64,000 nt of DNA. Source: Escherichia phage vB_EcoM_G37-3. Both the position numbers and the translations under genes were made by a program. Within the stretch, counting starts at the first letter, position 1. Each line of letters begins with the position of its first letter. Under the pieces are notes generated by a model that was not told the origin of the DNA, searched no databases, and saw only the letters and a list, made by a program, of their open reading frames with translations. This document shows, one piece after another, positions 10,275 through 63,315 of the stretch. The stretch lies in the sequence record MK327941.1; one strand, 5' to 3'.

Positions 10275-11204
10275 ATGAACTATAAACGTATTTATGATAA
10301 CCTGATTGAACGTGCTAAGACTCGAACTATCGACGGATATACAGAAAAGCATCACATCATACCACGTTGTATGAATGGAAGCGATGATGATAGCAATCTA
10401 GTTAGACTCACCCCAGAGGAACATTACATTGCTCACCTTCTGTTAGTTAAGATTTATCCAGATAACAGTAAATTGGTTTATGCTGCAAATATGATGTGCG
10501 TTTCTTCTGATTCACATAATGGAGAAAGACAGTCAAATAAACGTCATGGTTGGTTGCGTAGAAAAATGGCAGAGGCACATAGTAAAAGAATCCGCGATAG
10601 AATGGAGAACGATCCTGAATATAGAGCTAAGGTTTCGGAATGGGCTAGAAAAATGGGTAAAGCTATGAAAGGAGTTAAACGAGGACCGGAATTTAGCAGA
10701 AAGTTGGCAGAAAGAAACAGAAATACCGTGATGAAAGAAGAAACTAAACGTAAAATCGGGGAAGCCAACAAAGGAAGGAAACGTACAGAAGAATATAAAA
10801 GAAAACATAGTGAGCGGTATAAGGGTGAAGGTAATCCGATGTATGGTAAACGAGGAAAGGACCATCCGGCATATGGTACTAAACCGTGGAACAACCAAAC
10901 ATCATTTGTTGAGCAGAAAGCATGGTGGCGTTTCGCTGGCATGTTCTATGACTGGTATCAGAGAGATATTGACCGTGGAACACATAAACGCCACGGCCAT
11001 AAGAGAATGTTAGACGAGTTAGGTTTTGTTGGTTGGCGAGAAAAAGAGCCAGCCGCAGCAAGACGGTCAATTGAGATGTTCGCTAAAGGCTGGAATCCTT
11101 ATGAAGACCAAGAATGGTTAGATTATGTTAATACCCGCTTTCCAAACGACGATAGTTTTCCGCGTTCTTCAACATATACAAGACAAACAGATCTTTCGCA
11201 GTAA
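10275..11204 (+). CDS. HNH homing endonuclease with NUMOD3-like repeats
   Basis: HNH motif EKHHIIPRCMNGSDDDSNLVRLTPEEHYIAH; repeats GNPMYGKRGKDHPAYG; GGAG RBS; only sizeable plus-strand gene in the region. Confidence 0.85.
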   Translation: MNYKRIYDNLIERAKTRTIDGYTEKHHIIPRCMNGSDDDSNLVRLTPEEHYIAHLLLVKIYPDNSKLVYAANMMCVSSDSHNGERQSNKRHGWLRRKMAEAHSKRIRDRMENDPEYRAKVSEWARKMGKAMKGVKRGPEFSRKLAERNRNTVMKEETKRKIGEANKGRKRTEEYKRKHSERYKGEGNPMYGKRGKDHPAYGTKPWNNQTSFVEQKAWWRFAGMFYDWYQRDIDRGTHKRHGHKRMLDELGFVGWREKEPAAARRSIEMFAKGWNPYEDQEWLDYVNTRFPNDDSFPRSSTYTRQTDLSQ

Positions 11205-17441: not shown

Positions 17442-20109
17442 ACAGGTCAGTAAGCGATGCAACTTTTTCGTATTGCAGCTTTGCAGCCGTGGTAATGTTC
17501 TCCAGCGGTTTGACGAAAGTCTTATTAAACAACAAAGGCCAGTCTAACCACTTCAACACTTCTGATTCAATTTCTGGCGGAATACGAGTACCAGACAACC
17601 AACCAAAACAGATTTCTCCAAACGGATTTCGATCTTTAAGCGGTACAATCATAACCTTCTCGCCTTCACGAATCGGATCTAGTCCGAATTTTCTGGCATT
17701 ACGATTATAACACAATACACTCTTAACCGCATACGGACAACCCTTAATCGGATACCCGTTTGAATCGCTGTATTTCTGTAGGTTGTTTGCCGATGATACC
17801 GCAGCAACCTCAAGATAGTCAAGTTTTCGAAACTCTTGCTCAAAAATACCGTAGTATTCCTGCAATGACTCTTCCCCTTCCTGCAACATACGGCGAATAC
17901 ATTCTTTCAGTGATTTCTGACATGCTTTAGGGGTGGAGCTACGTTGCGTTTCCAAGCCCATGATTTTTAGCTTAGGTTCAGCAAAGCGCGTTCCTTCCAT
18001 ATCCCAAACATTAAGAGCATAACGCTTTTTGCCAGTCCAGAATCCACCGATACCCGCAGATTTCAACGGAGGACCAGCAATTGCCTCGCGGTCCATAAAC
18101 ATCAAGTGCTCGTAGTTGTTCATGTACTCGCATAACTCGCGATATCCCTTGTCGATAATAGGTTCCATTCGATGTTTACCGAAATTATCAAGGAAGTCAA
18201 CAAGTTTTTCGGTATCGTCGAAACGGTCTTCCCCGCCAACCTTATCAATAACATTGTTAACCAGCACATAAACGGAGTCAGTATCACAATAACGAACATA
18301 TGCAAAATCGGTTGTTCCGCAAAGATCGTTTAAGTATTCGTTAATCTTACGCTCAATCCACTGAATTGCAAGCTGACCGAACAGTGTGATCGCACTAGCG
18401 TTACGGAGATCATAAAAACGGAATTTAGGATTCCCCAACGCACCATAAAGGGAGTTGATCAAAACTTTTCGAGAAAGCTGGTTTGTATTGCACAAGATCG
18501 ACTCGTCTTTACATTCTTCCAGCAATTTCTCTAAGGCATCTTTACTTAATTCAGAAAGCATCGATTTAAACGCTTCATCAAAGTCGTGACGCACTTCAAC
18601 GCTATAGCTAATGGTTCCCCCATAAACATGATTTTCATCGTGTAGAATCGCTTTACAGAGTTCAGCATTGCGATCACATGCCAACATCATGTTTTTGTAC
18701 TGCTTACGCTGATCGAATACCTTTTTAATCTCAATCGGTACGATACCGTGAATATCTTTTCTATACATCCATCCGTTAGGCGAGCAAGAATACTCATCAC
18801 TCGGACGTGGTGCAGTTTTATTGATATACTCGTGCATCGGTGCAGCATCAAAAGATCCAGCGATTGTTTCAGGCGAAATATTAACCTGTCGAATAATAGA
18901 TGGGTACAGACTTGTTAAGTCAAAGCTCATCATCCAACGGTAAGCATTCGGCACAGGTTCTTTTACGAATGCGCCTGGATACGTCTGCTTAGGCTGTATC
19001 TTATTTTCCGGTACTACTTTACCCTCAGCTTTCAGAGATCCGAAGATAATAGCATCCCATACTTTCATTGGGTTATAAACATGGTTAAATTTAATCTTTG
19101 CATAGAAACATAGGCTATACACCAGATCAATAAAACCACGCTTTTTATCAATCGCCAGCACACGGTCAACGTCGCCGATGTTATAATCTATGTAAAGTTG
19201 ATGGTTGTCATCACGCAATTTCTTTAACGGACCATCATAATCAACCTTACCGATTCCGGTCTCATATTCAGCAACATAATCTAACGCATATGTTGGTTGA
19301 GTCGTAAAGCTAAATTTCTTGTACAGGTCAATATAATCAAGGCTTTCGATCCCCATGATCGTAAATGCTTCACGCTCGTTGCCAAAATCATCCTGTGAGA
19401 TTCGGGATTTAATCTTACCGCACGGGCTTAGACGGTTAGCGGTTCTACTTCCGAACTTATTACTGATACGTTTAATGATATACGGTATATCGAATGTTTC
19501 TGTGTTCCAGCCAGTGAAACCAACGGGTCGGTTTTCCTCAAAGAATCGGATGTATTCTAACAGCAATTCATCTTCTGTGTCGTAGACGTTATAAACAACG
19601 CGCTCTACAATATCAGGTCGAAGAATAGACTTGCTAGATTCCCAGATTTCACCGTTTTTTCCTTTCAAATCAAATACAAAGAAACGATCATGTACGGAAT
19701 CATAATGCGTAATTGCATCGATAGGATATTTCGCTTCTTCTGGTTTAGGAAATTCTGGGGCAGTGACCTCGATATCAACCCATGCTACACGGATTTTATT
19801 TCGGTCATATCGAATCTCGCCTTTATACGTATCAGACAGATAGGAGATGATAAAATCATCCATCCCTAGCGCCTCTTGCCCCATTTCTCCCATCTTTTTA
19901 CGCCATTTGTTGGCCTCGTTCATAGATGGGAATTTTTTAGCAATGCAAGGCTTGCCATAGATATCTTTATAATTCGTAACCATACCAGGCGCGGCATGAT
20001 GAAATAATGTTGGCGTATATTCAACGTAACGCTCTTGTTCTTGTCCAGCATCATCAATATAACGCTCGTAGATCTTATCACCTACTCGCTCACATGACAG
20101 AAAATACAT
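17431..20109 (-). CDS. 43: DNA polymerase gp43 (family B)
   Basis: About 892 aa from ATG at 20109 behind GAAGGAG RBS (track start is GTG); exonuclease and polymerase motifs match T4 gp43 along the whole length. Confidence 0.95.
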   Translation of the reverse strand: MYFLSCERVGDKIYERYIDDAGQEQERYVEYTPTLFHHAAPGMVTNYKDIYGKPCIAKKFPSMNEANKWRKKMGEMGQEALGMDDFIISYLSDTYKGEIRYDRNKIRVAWVDIEVTAPEFPKPEEAKYPIDAITHYDSVHDRFFVFDLKGKNGEIWESSKSILRPDIVERVVYNVYDTEDELLLEYIRFFEENRPVGFTGWNTETFDIPYIIKRISNKFGSRTANRLSPCGKIKSRISQDDFGNEREAFTIMGIESLDYIDLYKKFSFTTQPTYALDYVAEYETGIGKVDYDGPLKKLRDDNHQLYIDYNIGDVDRVLAIDKKRGFIDLVYSLCFYAKIKFNHVYNPMKVWDAIIFGSLKAEGKVVPENKIQPKQTYPGAFVKEPVPNAYRWMMSFDLTSLYPSIIRQVNISPETIAGSFDAAPMHEYINKTAPRPSDEYSCSPNGWMYRKDIHGIVPIEIKKVFDQRKQYKNMMLACDRNAELCKAILHDENHVYGGTISYSVEVRHDFDEAFKSMLSELSKDALEKLLEECKDESILCNTNQLSRKVLINSLYGALGNPKFRFYDLRNASAITLFGQLAIQWIERKINEYLNDLCGTTDFAYVRYCDTDSVYVLVNNVIDKVGGEDRFDDTEKLVDFLDNFGKHRMEPIIDKGYRELCEYMNNYEHLMFMDREAIAGPPLKSAGIGGFWTGKKRYALNVWDMEGTRFAEPKLKIMGLETQRSSTPKACQKSLKECIRRMLQEGEESLQEYYGIFEQEFRKLDYLEVAAVSSANNLQKYSDSNGYPIKGCPYAVKSVLCYNRNARKFGLDPIREGEKVMIVPLKDRNPFGEICFGWLSGTRIPPEIESEVLKWLDWPLLFNKTFVKPLENITTAAKLQYEKVASLTDLFDI

Positions 20110-20141
20110 AATATAAACTCCTTCATTTACGAAAGACACTC

Positions 20142-20170
20142 ATTATAGGGGAATCGACCTAGTTTGTCAA
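20142..20170 (-). promoter_or_regulatory. sigma70-like early promoter TTGACA-N17-TATAAT upstream of gene 43
   Basis: Consensus hexamers flanked by AGGGG/CCCCT inverted repeat; approximate. Confidence 0.6.
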
Positions 20171-20191
20171 TACCCCTATCCCATCAGTATC

Positions 20192-20554
20192 TTAGCGTCC
20201 GATCTGATATTTCTCGATCAGCGTCCACTCTTCTTTCTGTTTGAAAGACAGTACACGGAAATTATTAACTTCGGTAGTTTCAAAATCACTATCAATCAGG
20301 GTACACAGATTCCACTGCGCAAGAAGTTTTGCAATGTTATTACGGCGTAATTCATCTTCCCACGTCATTTTAACACTACGACCATCTAATTTCAACAACT
20401 CCTTGAAATGAACGATGTAATAGCGCCCTTTCTTCTGGAGAATATGACAAGACTGATACAGTGTCTTGTCACGATTGTTGGCAATGCCGCAGCGGGTTAA
20501 AGTTTCCTTAATTTTAAGGAAGTTTTCAGGACTAATCAAATTAATTTCAATCAT
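20192..20554 (-). CDS. regA: translational repressor RegA
   Basis: 120 aa; near-colinear with T4 RegA (TLTRCGIANN, YQSCHILQKKG, NNFRVLSFKQK). Confidence 0.9.
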   Translation of the reverse strand: MIEINLISPENFLKIKETLTRCGIANNRDKTLYQSCHILQKKGRYYIVHFKELLKLDGRSVKMTWEDELRRNNIAKLLAQWNLCTLIDSDFETTEVNNFRVLSFKQKEEWTLIEKYQIGR

Positions 20555-25580: not shown

Positions 25581-25824
25581 TAATCCACTCCGCAATCACA
25601 CATTCCATAATATTAAATGCTAACACATCTTCATCAATGTTGTAAACACTTGCCGCCTTCACTTTAACTAATGTGTCTCTGCGATCTGGCAACATGATCA
25701 CATAATCCAGTGTCGCCGGATCATATGTCATAAAGGGATCAACATAAATCCCTTTATTCAATGCCAGATATTCGCGAAGACCTTCTATAACCCTGTGTCT
25801 AAGGTAGGTCATCGATAGAATCAT
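25561..25824 (-). CDS. hypothetical protein (87 aa)
   Basis: ATGA overlap with upstream gene. Confidence 0.4.
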   Translation of the reverse strand: MILSMTYLRHRVIEGLREYLALNKGIYVDPFMTYDPATLDYVIMLPDRRDTLVKVKAASVYNIDEDVLAFNIMECVIAEWINGKVKF

Positions 25825-26381
25825 TTTAGTTTATGTTCCTCTAAAAATTCTTCAATTTCACCTTGCAGGTCTTCCGCTTGCTGTTCCAGAATATCGCGAA
25901 ATTCACCTACAGTCAAGCGGTAATCACATTTCACCAGTCGATGCGGGAGAATATACCCTTTATACATTGTCTCTGACGCTTCCAGGAATACCCCACTATG
26001 CATGACAGAGATCCAACCTGTTAGCGTCAATGGAGTATTCGGAAAATAATACTTGCTGGATTGTTTCCACTGGACGAAAGCACCATATACAATCGGATTA
26101 TATTCACCAACCACAATCTTAATAATGGATTCTACTTTGTCTTTTACAAAGTCGCCAATGTCCATAGTTATCATCAACTCTTTTGGATTAATGATTTTAA
26201 GGTAACGACGGTAGCCGTCATCATACCACATCTTAACAACTGACCGATCAATATTCGCTTTCAGATAACCATAGATCGGATTCTTGTAATATGATTGTTT
26301 TAGTGTGTATGTGTGCACCAATTTAATAAAATGTTCCATTACCAGCAAATCAGAATCAGCCGCGACCATAGTCGTATTCAT
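25821..26381 (-). CDS. hypothetical protein (186 aa)
   Basis: Internal ATG at 26381 behind GAGGA RBS. Confidence 0.5.
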   Translation of the reverse strand: MNTTMVAADSDLLVMEHFIKLVHTYTLKQSYYKNPIYGYLKANIDRSVVKMWYDDGYRRYLKIINPKELMITMDIGDFVKDKVESIIKIVVGEYNPIVYGAFVQWKQSSKYYFPNTPLTLTGWISVMHSGVFLEASETMYKGYILPHRLVKCDYRLTVGEFRDILEQQAEDLQGEIEEFLEEHKLK

Positions 26382-58020: not shown

Positions 58021-58043
58021 TTTGATACTCCTTAGTAGTTCGT

Positions 58044-58073
58044 GTTTCGTTTCGATGGGTGTATTATGCTATA
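58044..58073 (-). repeat. PeSL core repeat copy 1 (GTTTCGTTTCGATGGGTGTATTATGCTATA)
   Basis: Near-identical 30-mer recurs at about 59022 and 61012; approximate. Confidence 0.6.
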
Positions 58074-58091
58074 CACCCTCTCGCGTGTCAA
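58063..58091 (-). promoter_or_regulatory. early promoter (PeSL-type) TTGACA-N17-CATAAT
   Basis: -10 inside GGGTGTA/TACACCC inverted repeat; approximate. Confidence 0.55.
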
Positions 58092-58099
58092 CAACTTTT

Positions 58100-58288
58100 T
58101 TAGTCTTTTTTCATAATTTCTAGAGCAGTTTCTACAGCACCTTTCCAACCTTCCCACATAATGGACATAGTAAGGAAGTTAAAGCACCCGCAGGAATCAA
58201 CCTTTTTAGAGATAAACCATTCTACAAACGCTTCGCTCATACCATGCTCTTTAGCGGATTCGCGTAATTGTTCAATTTGGTCTTCCAT
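58100..58288 (-). CDS. hypothetical protein (62 aa)
   Basis: ORF on the common strand. Confidence 0.4.
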   Translation of the reverse strand: MEDQIEQLRESAKEHGMSEAFVEWFISKKVDSCGCFNFLTMSIMWEGWKGAVETALEIMKKD

Positions 58289-58310: not shown

Positions 58311-58505
58311 TTATTCAAACTCAAACGGTCTATTCAACCTATTGTAAAAGTACATATAACAAGCAAAATTATGCTTTGGCTGTACCGTATCAGATAGACA
58401 CGCTTTTACAGCCTCGCGGTCCGATGGGTCTACACCCTCAGCTTTAAGTAATGCTAAAATCTGGTTATAGCGTACTCTTAGTTGTACTAATGGTTTATCC
58501 CCCAT
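58311..58505 (-). CDS. hypothetical protein (64 aa)
   Basis: ORF on the common strand. Confidence 0.4.
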   Translation of the reverse strand: MGDKPLVQLRVRYNQILALLKAEGVDPSDREAVKACLSDTVQPKHNFACYMYFYNRLNRPFEFE

Positions 58506-58808: not shown

Positions 58809-58994
58809 TCAGAAATATGCAATATAGTTTGCCAGTCCTACAGAGTCATCATTCGGCATTGCTTTTACCGCCAGTTCAAACCCTGCTTCAACTTTCTGTT
58901 TAGCGGATTCTTCGTTATAACCCCAGATGACCAGAATAGCTACTACGTTTTCTTTGCTTACTGCTTTCAGTGCTTTAGTGATGCGACGTGCCAT
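58809..58994 (-). CDS. hypothetical protein (61 aa)
   Basis: ACGGAGAATCAAAT leader after an early promoter. Confidence 0.45.
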   Translation of the reverse strand: MARRITKALKAVSKENVVAILVIWGYNEESAKQKVEAGFELAVKAMPNDDSVGLANYIAYF

Positions 58995-59021
58995 AATTTG
59001 ATTCTCCGTTTAAGAAAGTGT

Positions 59022-59050
59022 GTTTCGTTTCGATGGGTGTATTATGCTAT
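59022..59050 (-). repeat. PeSL core repeat copy 2
   Basis: Same 30-mer as at 58044 and 61012; approximate. Confidence 0.6.
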
Positions 59051-59069
59051 AGGCGTGATCTGGTGTCAA
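59041..59069 (-). promoter_or_regulatory. early promoter (PeSL-type) TTGACA-N17-CATAAT
   Basis: Hexamers on minus strand; approximate. Confidence 0.55.
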
Positions 59070-59094
59070 CAACTTTTTTAAAAAATTTTAGGCA

Positions 59095-59266
59095 ATAAAA
59101 AAGCCACTCCGAAGAGTGGCTTATAGGGAAGGTAGCGAATCTTCCTTATCTCCAACCTGCTAGCGGCCTAGCAAGTGAATGCTTTAGCGTACCGGATCAC
59201 CCCCATACGCTGTAATAAATGCGGCTAGGTGACGTCCAAATCATTCTAACCGCGCTGTCTTTAGTT
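59095..59266 (-). ncRNA. candidate structured small RNA (about 170 nt) behind a late promoter
   Basis: No ORF longer than 14 codons; four predicted hairpins (GCGGTTAG/CTAGCCGC, AGCGTA/TACGCT, GCTAG/CTAGC, GGAAG/CTTCC); ends in terminator GCCACTCTTCGGAGTGGC plus T-run. Confidence 0.4.
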
Positions 59267-59271
59267 CACTA

Positions 59272-59490
59272 TTATTTATATCGCTTTCTCTCGCGACGTT
59301 TTTGATCTTCTTCCTTGATAGAGTTAAACGCATCAAAAAGACACATGACACTAATAATAAACATAACCGTATTTTCTACGATATCCCACGGCTTCGCATC
59401 GGTACAGATTCCCCAAACTGTAAGAAATGCAAATAGTGCAGAAGAGATCACAAGCATGATACTTGCTAAGATATAAAAAGTCATTTTCAT
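59272..59490 (-). CDS. small membrane protein (72 aa)
   Basis: Two hydrophobic segments, basic C-terminus; ATGA overlap with upstream gene. Confidence 0.45.
   Translation of the reverse strand: MKMTFYILASIMLVISSALFAFLTVWGICTDAKPWDIVENTVMFIISVMCLFDAFNSIKEEDQKRRERKRYK
59273..59280 (-). promoter_or_regulatory. T4-type late promoter TATAAATA
   Basis: Exact TATAAATA on minus strand overlapping the last codons (Y-K-stop) of the upstream gene. Confidence 0.5.
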
Positions 59491-60993: not shown

Positions 60994-61011
60994 TTTGATT
61001 CTCCTAAGTGT

Positions 61012-61041
61012 GTTTCGTTTCGATATGTGCATTATGCTATA
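61012..61041 (-). repeat. PeSL core repeat copy 3
   Basis: Same 30-mer as at 58044 and 59022 with two substitutions; approximate. Confidence 0.6.
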
Positions 61042-61059
61042 GTCGTTTATGGTTGTCAA
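61031..61059 (-). promoter_or_regulatory. early promoter (PeSL-type) TTGACA-N17-CATAAT
   Basis: Hexamers on minus strand; approximate. Confidence 0.55.
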
Positions 61060-61102
61060 CACCTAAAAACAAAAAACCCCGAAAATTTTTCGGGGTATAA
61101 AA

Positions 61103-63125: not shown

Positions 63126-63315
63126 TACTGATTCCTCAAATGAAAATATTTATTAACAATTGTCGCTTTGCGACGTGCCGGAGGCATTGACTACTTTTTA
63201 ACCGAAACAAATTTTCTATTATTCTAAAGATCTTTCTTCGTTTTGGTTATGTTTTAACCAATAACTATATTTTTATACAGTAATAAATAAAACGGGTACT
63301 ATACGAGGACTTCTT

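Follow-up and report, generated by a model that had tools for sequence, protein, structure and literature searches.

Why does an early operon of a T4-type phage carry some 150 nucleotides without an open reading frame between its last gene and its terminator, and does this stretch represent a spacer, the untranslated end of an mRNA or a small RNA gene? The window, by which we mean the whole 64 kb of DNA that was analysed, is the first part of a Krischvirus (RB49/phi1/JSE-like) genome and starts at rIIA, as in RB49. The region matches 58 phage records of GenBank at 95–99% identity; classification as Krischvirus was confirmed in all 22 of these records that were opened, including RB49, phi1 and JSE. 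The genes around the element are all located on the minus strand. Upstream lies an early operon that begins at a PeSL early promoter at ≈61059 (minus) and in which Dmd is followed by five ORFs of 36–74 aa with one or two TM-like segments each. The genes of relevance are:

First ORF of the operon: 52 aa, one TM-like segment
60181–60384, minus strand: Dmd (PF17587)
59272–59490, minus strand: 72-aa minigene (phrog_15168) with two TM-like segments, last ORF of the dmd/membrane-minigene early operon
58809–58994, minus strand: DUF7421 gene (61 aa) with its own promoter, downstream of the PeSL cassette, also present in T1-like siphovirus contigs

The 72-aa minigene has no Pfam match, the homologues of its protein are confined to sequences of at least 83% identity, and its 3' end reads ...CGA TAT AAA TAA (Tyr-Lys-stop). 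A preliminary description of the locus had placed the unit inside the array of membrane minigenes; it is rather located at the 3' end of this array, with five hydrophobic ORFs upstream and four ORFs downstream that are not hydrophobic. By its position, the segment 59095–59267 certainly forms the 3'UTR of this early operon with dmd and the membrane minigenes. At neighbouring operon ends the terminator follows directly after the stop codon, and the extra 150 nt present here are exceptional. The element sits inside a hyperplastic region, and in such regions ORFans come and go (PMC2839356). The downstream DUF7421 protein is 75–80% identical to the products of genes on contigs of ≈50 kb (13–52 kb; loci L013–L028), which we take as T1-like siphoviruses on the strength of a BLAST note given in the TB34 record. 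This likeness suggests that a PeSL-flanked cassette may have been exchanged between unrelated phage groups. The T1-like phages reached via the DUF7421 homologues are without the element.

The ≈150 nt downstream of the 72-aa ORF contain stop codons in all six frames, and 58995–59271 is the longest stretch of the window without an ORF of at least 40 aa on either strand. The GC content of the element amounts to 47%, compared to 40% for the window and 35–37% just upstream. The earlier statement that no ORF exceeds 14 codons was roughly correct: there are a 15-codon ATG ORF, a TTG ORF of 25 codons that extends into the terminator and, in antisense, an ORF of 28 codons, none of which is conserved in frame. 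The ATG ORF, the sole one in sense direction, starts at 59243, would code for the peptide MIWTSPSRIYYSVWG and has no Shine-Dalgarno sequence. A run of three to five G residues varies among the relatives by indels of 1–2 nt, so that this ORF comprises 15, 19 or 24 codons with an altered C-terminus. Because these indels break the frame, we regard the element as non-coding on the evidence of the aligned relatives. Protein remnants were sought in all frames of the element and none were detected; likewise, no conserved ORF was found when the relatives were inspected for a conserved small protein at this place, a possibility that had been raised against an RNA gene. A cluster of CTAG tetranucleotides turned out to be not unusual. 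The only other ORF-free stretch of at least 100 nt in the window (63126–63315) is an AT-rich divergent intergenic promoter region; it carries two back-to-back late-promoter-like motifs AATAAATA (63154, minus; 63282, plus), each ≈25–30 nt upstream of a divergently oriented gene.

If the stretch is read as RNA, the following parts can be distinguished between the end of the 72-aa ORF and the next promoter:

59273–59280, minus strand: T4-type late promoter motif TATAAATA, exact match, at −13 to −6 of a predicted start G at ≈59267
59254–59267, minus strand: 5' leader GAACUAAAGACAGC, predicted to be single-stranded; one position is G, A or deleted among relatives
59221–59253, minus strand: hairpin H1, 8 + 4 bp with internal loop and apical loop UUGGAC, invariant except for one C>U in the loop
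59186–59211, minus strand: hairpin H2, 7-bp stem plus 3-bp apical stem, apex hypervariable with 3–5 G
59151–59179, minus strand: hairpin H3, core of 8 bp CUUGCUAG/CUAGCAGG with loop GCCG, invariant
59127–59145, minus strand: hairpin H4, stem GGAAG/CUUCC with 9-nt loop AUUCGCUAC
59095–59122, minus strand: intrinsic terminator AAGCCACUC-UUCG-GAGUGGCUU plus U-tract, the stem-loop part of the PeSL cassette
59041–59069, minus strand: sigma70-type early promoter of the PeSL cassette, TTGACA-17-CATAAT, after an AT-rich stretch

The MFE fold of the 178-nt unit consists of four hairpins, the number that had been predicted before, and the terminator hairpin (−64.6 kcal/mol, z = −4.47). Without the terminator, the remaining 143-nt core reaches z = −2.56, with 2 of 200 shuffles as good, and the antisense strand of the element gives z = −1.31 and is 9 kcal/mol weaker than the sense strand. 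In a GC-corrected fold scan of both strands (5,808 scanned windows) the element ranks at about the 19th place and is thus highly, not uniquely, structured. The four lower pairs of H3 in the MFE fold are not conserved, nor is the lower extension that the single-sequence fold gives to H4. As an alternative, the H4 loop is also predicted to pair with the 5' leader. The loop AUUCGCUAC is invariant in 26 aligned sequences and differs only in the metagenomic copy L036 (OQVL01013596.1, positions 1–176), in which H1 to H3 are intact and the H4 loop is shortened (GGAA-GAAAGA-UUCC). In place of terminator and PeSL cassette, the final 40 nt of this contig consist of unrelated sequence; the copy may stem from recombination or from a chimeric assembly.

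Other stretches of the window are structured as well. The most structured one (25590–25830, minus; 241 nt, −78.4 kcal/mol, z = −5.37) is located inside an 87-aa ORF just upstream of a gp46-like gene and may be a regulatory or processing structure of the mRNA. Unusually low GC-corrected folding energies were also determined for 58347–58478 (minus), inside a 64-aa ORF, and for 20067–20264 (minus), just upstream of the DNA polymerase gene, where RB49 is known to have a gp43 translational operator hairpin.

Conservation of this fold was examined in 20 distinct sequences. H1, H3, H4 and the terminator hardly differ among them, in stems as in loops, and most of the variation falls on the H2 apex and on the linkers. 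The stem cells are paired in 685 of 689 cases, and on the opposite strand 103 of the 689 would not pair. Wherever the long stems have changed, pairing is kept: in the stem of H2, pair 2 changes from G-C via G.U to A-U, pair 1 from A-U to G.U and, in UPWr_E1, pair 4 from G-C to G.U; in the apex of H2 a G.U pair becomes G-C or A-U, and in the stem of H4 an A>G change converts A-U to G.U. The G-run in the H2 apex, sometimes interrupted by T, stands out by frequent mutation among near-identical phages, and the H2 loop occurs in the variants GUGA, GCGA, UUAA and GUAA. Covariation is limited to one pair with a double change, a score that is reached by 11 of 500 shuffles; 97.8% of the cells are paired, 44 of the 51 pairs never vary, and with so little variation among the known copies no statistical significance is attained. 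The proportion of variable columns was not significantly lower in stems (9 of 70 paired versus 13 of 73 unpaired columns). The idea that stems avoid transversions and indels was dropped, as a scripted count gave p = 0.15.

In the divergent relatives, the upstream ORF is 76–91% identical and the element 93–98%. The block 59270–58740, which includes the DUF7421 gene, is equally conserved (93–98%), and the boundary between divergent and conserved sequence is located at ≈59300. A particular conservation of the element relative to its flanks was therefore rejected, because the conserved block runs through the downstream gene, and the block-wide pattern suggests a history of mosaic recombination in this part of the genome.

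Is there a promoter that could produce the RNA on its own? T4-type late promoters are defined by TATAAATA at −13 to −6, and in RB49-type late promoters A or T is accepted at −13 (PMC1524935). An exact copy of the motif, which had been recognised over the stop region of the upstream minigene, is indeed present at 59280–59273 of the minus strand and overlaps the Tyr-Lys codons and part of the stop codon of the 72-aa ORF. The motif by itself is not enriched in the window (3 copies compared to 5.7 expected), and the relaxed form (A/T)ATAAATA is depleted (5 observed, 13.4 ± 3.5 expected); its other four copies in the window are all located 20–35 nt upstream of start codons. The complete Krischvirus genome OZ035808 has 21 copies compared to 28–33 expected from Markov models, and 17 of these are within 60 nt upstream of an ATG-ORF. 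Two of the four exceptions are AATAAATA motifs with no ATG-started ORF within 130–320 nt. The third is a TATAAATA motif with an unstructured leader of ≈200 nt downstream of the major capsid gene (10546–10750 of OZ035808; z = +0.74, no unusual fold), where ≈200 nt without an ORF are followed by small ORFs and the next large ORF looks structural. The fourth is the site of the element, the sole copy with no ORF and a terminator behind it.

The scarcity of (A/T)ATAAATA implies, at the level of motif counts, selection against spurious late promoters. Since the motif is avoided outside promoter positions, the copy in front of the element is likely active and would fire late. Of the late promoter postulated in the preliminary description, the exact motif thus stands and gains indirect support from the genome-wide avoidance elsewhere, while the motif count alone is not above chance. 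Of 26 aligned relatives, 25 retain the motif. In the exception, the metagenomic contig L035 (MAVA01000028.1, 3300–3340), indels of +2 and −14 nt give the 72-aa ORF a new tail, and the 14-nt deletion removes TATAAATA and leaves the element unchanged; the quality of this contig is doubtful, as 1-nt indels are present inside other ORFs, and it may be error-prone. Retention of the motif could also be due to coding reasons (Tyr-Lys-stop). The late-promoter table of Nolan et al. has no coordinates near the site.

The strong intrinsic terminator that had been noted downstream of the hairpins is real by several measures: the hairpin 59122–59101 has a 9-bp stem with five G-C pairs, a UUCG loop and U6, and it was independently annotated by ARNold in the GenBank records of the relatives G2248 and G5211. 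The terminator is also part of a known type of cassette. PeSL cassettes were defined for RB49 and phi1 by Arbiol et al. 2010; their stem-loops are effective terminators by experiment, and the cassettes mediate recombination and mini-circle formation (PMC2839356). The segment 59122–59041 corresponds to this definition, with a stem-loop terminator, an AT-rich stretch and a strong sigma70-like promoter that is repeated: the promoter belongs to a 61-nt repeat with further copies at 58042–58102 and 61010–61070. As the repeat spans only 59020–59080, the structured 150 nt (59125–59267) are outside and are not PeSL repeat sequence. The independent metagenome contigs L010 and L030–L033 break 170–250 nt past the 72-aa ORF, at or just beyond terminator and PeSL cassette, which fits assemblies that collapse at the repeated promoter sequence.

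The distribution of the element follows that of the genus. By blastn, its 151-nt core was found once in each of 58 phage records (95–99% identity), with the same tally of organism names as for the 58 records in which a DNA polymerase segment of the window is present. In the 'distant' mode of blastn against phages, E. coli genomes and plasmids, only Krischvirus was detected, besides a 26-nt match to the terminator in E. coli, and an exact-pattern scan of GTDB genomes did not find the element. Exact-pattern scans of IMG/VR and JGI metagenomes, which matched close relatives only, and protein-anchored look-ups together added nine somewhat more divergent copies. A covariance model of the core revealed no second copy in the window, in a whole Krischvirus genome, in the tRNA region of T4 or in the T1-like loci. 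None of the 58 records marks an RNA at the element; the site is either blank or annotated with spurious short ORFs. In the literature, nothing was found on the element or on Krischvirus transcripts.

Known RNA families do not account for the element. The suggested comparison with Rfam did not identify a fitting family: no part of the window matched an Rfam 15 family at gathering thresholds, and a permissive scan yielded as its best matches only sub-threshold scores driven by and centred on the terminator, namely for RNAI (23.5 bits, gathering 47) and EF3314_EF3315 (23.3 bits, gathering 100). Like ColE1 RNAI and other multi-hairpin antisense RNAs, the element is a row of stem-loops that ends in a terminator; unlike RNAI, for which its score is low as given above, it has no antisense partner in the window, in which complementary targets occur at chance level. 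ARAGORN finds no tRNA or tmRNA genes in the window. A RegB/S1 site (single-stranded GGAGRAYARAA) was discarded as well: the element has GGAGA(U/C)AAGGA with mismatches at positions 6, 7 and 10, and this RegB-like GGAG in the linker between H3 and H4 is partly inside the stem of H4. A resemblance of H3 to the type I-F CRISPR repeat (common TTCACT plus hairpin) was dropped, as no CRISPR-DR model scored in the permissive Rfam scan.

What, then, is the element? A non-coding RNA fits best, with no conserved ORF, a fold on the sense strand, pairing that is kept and presence in 58 of 58 genomes, and to this extent the view of the preliminary description, a dedicated late small RNA instead of a spacer, is maintained. 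It has to be qualified in that the stretch is also a 3'UTR and terminator region, that its terminator is a known PeSL stem-loop and that the contig without TATAAATA keeps the element. We therefore consider the element a credible but unproven small-RNA gene. The model that we favour, with no more than middling confidence, is that of a 3'UTR-type RNA module of the dmd/membrane-minigene operon which would also be made late as a free RNA of ≈165–172 nt. Early, the element would be transcribed as the 150-nt 3'UTR of the operon and end at the PeSL terminator, as follows from the gene layout. Late, the gp55-type promoter TATAAATA in the last codons of the 72-aa ORF would initiate at ≈G59267, a step that we infer from the motif, its genome-wide avoidance and the −13 to −6 rule. 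This transcript would stop at the PeSL terminator and be released with four hairpins, the terminator hairpin and a U-tail. Since variation is lowest in H1, H3 and H4 and affects several positions in two linkers, we speculate that the action of the RNA might be mediated by the folded hairpins, which would bind a protein or make contacts through their loops, and not by a linear seed.

A purely cis-acting 3'UTR is a possible alternative, if one that we rate on the unlikely side. The hairpins would then guard the early mRNA from 3' exonucleases and reinforce termination before the next PeSL promoter, and TATAAATA would be a by-product of Tyr-Lys-stop or would serve only late read-through into the downstream genes. 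The layout makes the segment the 3'UTR of the operon in any case, PeSL stem-loops terminate effectively in experiments (PMC2839356), contig L035 retains the element without the motif, and the scan within the window gave no trans target. However, adjacent operon ends suffice with a terminator right after the stop codon, protection from exonucleases needs structure and not invariant loop sequences in H1, H3 and H4, and late-promoter motifs are otherwise purged from non-promoter positions. At the other extreme, a late RNA acting in trans, for example as a protein-binding decoy or as an anti-defence or host-takeover RNA via the invariant hairpins, is conceivable and in our view unlikely.

It is quite improbable that the stretch is a non-functional relic, i.e. 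a decayed ORFan or cassette between the last minigene and the PeSL cassette that is conserved only because the genus is young. Such a view can refer to the 95–99% identity of the known copies, to the equally conserved flanking block, to the SD-like motifs GGAG and AAGGA without an ORF behind them and to the non-significant covariation statistics. It is at variance with the retention in 58 of 58 genomes despite an indel-prone region, with stem changes that keep pairing and a fold that is specific for the sense strand, with a GC content of 47% compared to 35–40% around it, and with the lack of protein remnants in any frame. An element acting at the DNA level, for instance a site of recombination or replication with a part in the exchange of cassettes via PeSLs, is very improbable: the segment does adjoin a PeSL cassette, a mediator of recombination (PMC2839356), the boundary at ≈59300 is close by and the junction in L036 is inside H4, but the G.U pairs of the stems, some of them invariant and others newly arisen, would be mismatched in a DNA hairpin as well as on the other strand, in agreement with the 103 of 689 unpaired cells, and the genome has no further copy of the segment. 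A very small protein, for example from the ATG ORF at 59243, can hardly be credited, as this ORF has no Shine-Dalgarno sequence and its length and C-terminus alter with the G-run.

The proposed 3'UTR-type module with an additional late RNA can be compared with known systems. DapZ and MicL are bacterial sRNAs of the 3'UTR type that are transcribed from a promoter of their own within the preceding coding sequence. Similar to these, and at the sequence level only, the element has its promoter in the end of the upstream ORF, is co-linear with the 3'UTR of the mRNA and shares a common terminator and U-tail. In contrast to DapZ and MicL, its promoter is a phage late motif of the gp55 type, it is far more structured, and no seed or target was identified. 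Terminator (59122–59101) and promoter (59069–59041) form a typical PeSL cassette as in RB49 and phi1, whereas the structured 150-nt segment is unique, single-copy and not described for these cassettes (PMC2839356). The RNAs rnaC and rnaD of T4 (species 1 and 2) are a further case of small and stable RNAs in a T4-type phage that do not code for protein; for the RNA of the element, stability is a prediction. The two T4 RNAs map to the tRNA cluster and resemble tRNAs in their 3' parts, whereas the window has no tRNA genes. Homology to rnaC and rnaD was rejected, as the alignment is at random level and the covariance model of the element misses the tRNA region of T4.

The element defines a putative new RNA family that is restricted to one genus. 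Krischvirus is a genus used in phage therapy. According to a 2010 review of post-transcriptional control in T4, no riboswitch or small trans-acting RNA had been functionally characterised in this phage (PMC3014915). Should a late trans-acting RNA indeed be produced here, transcribed by means of the gp55 late machinery, T4-type phages would have their first described case of a functional regulatory RNA. The element is compact, conserved in every sequenced member of Krischvirus and easy to delete, and it thus offers a direct test of whether T4-type phages employ regulatory RNAs from late promoters. Hyperplastic ORFan regions can accordingly carry conserved non-coding genes that are missed by annotation pipelines.
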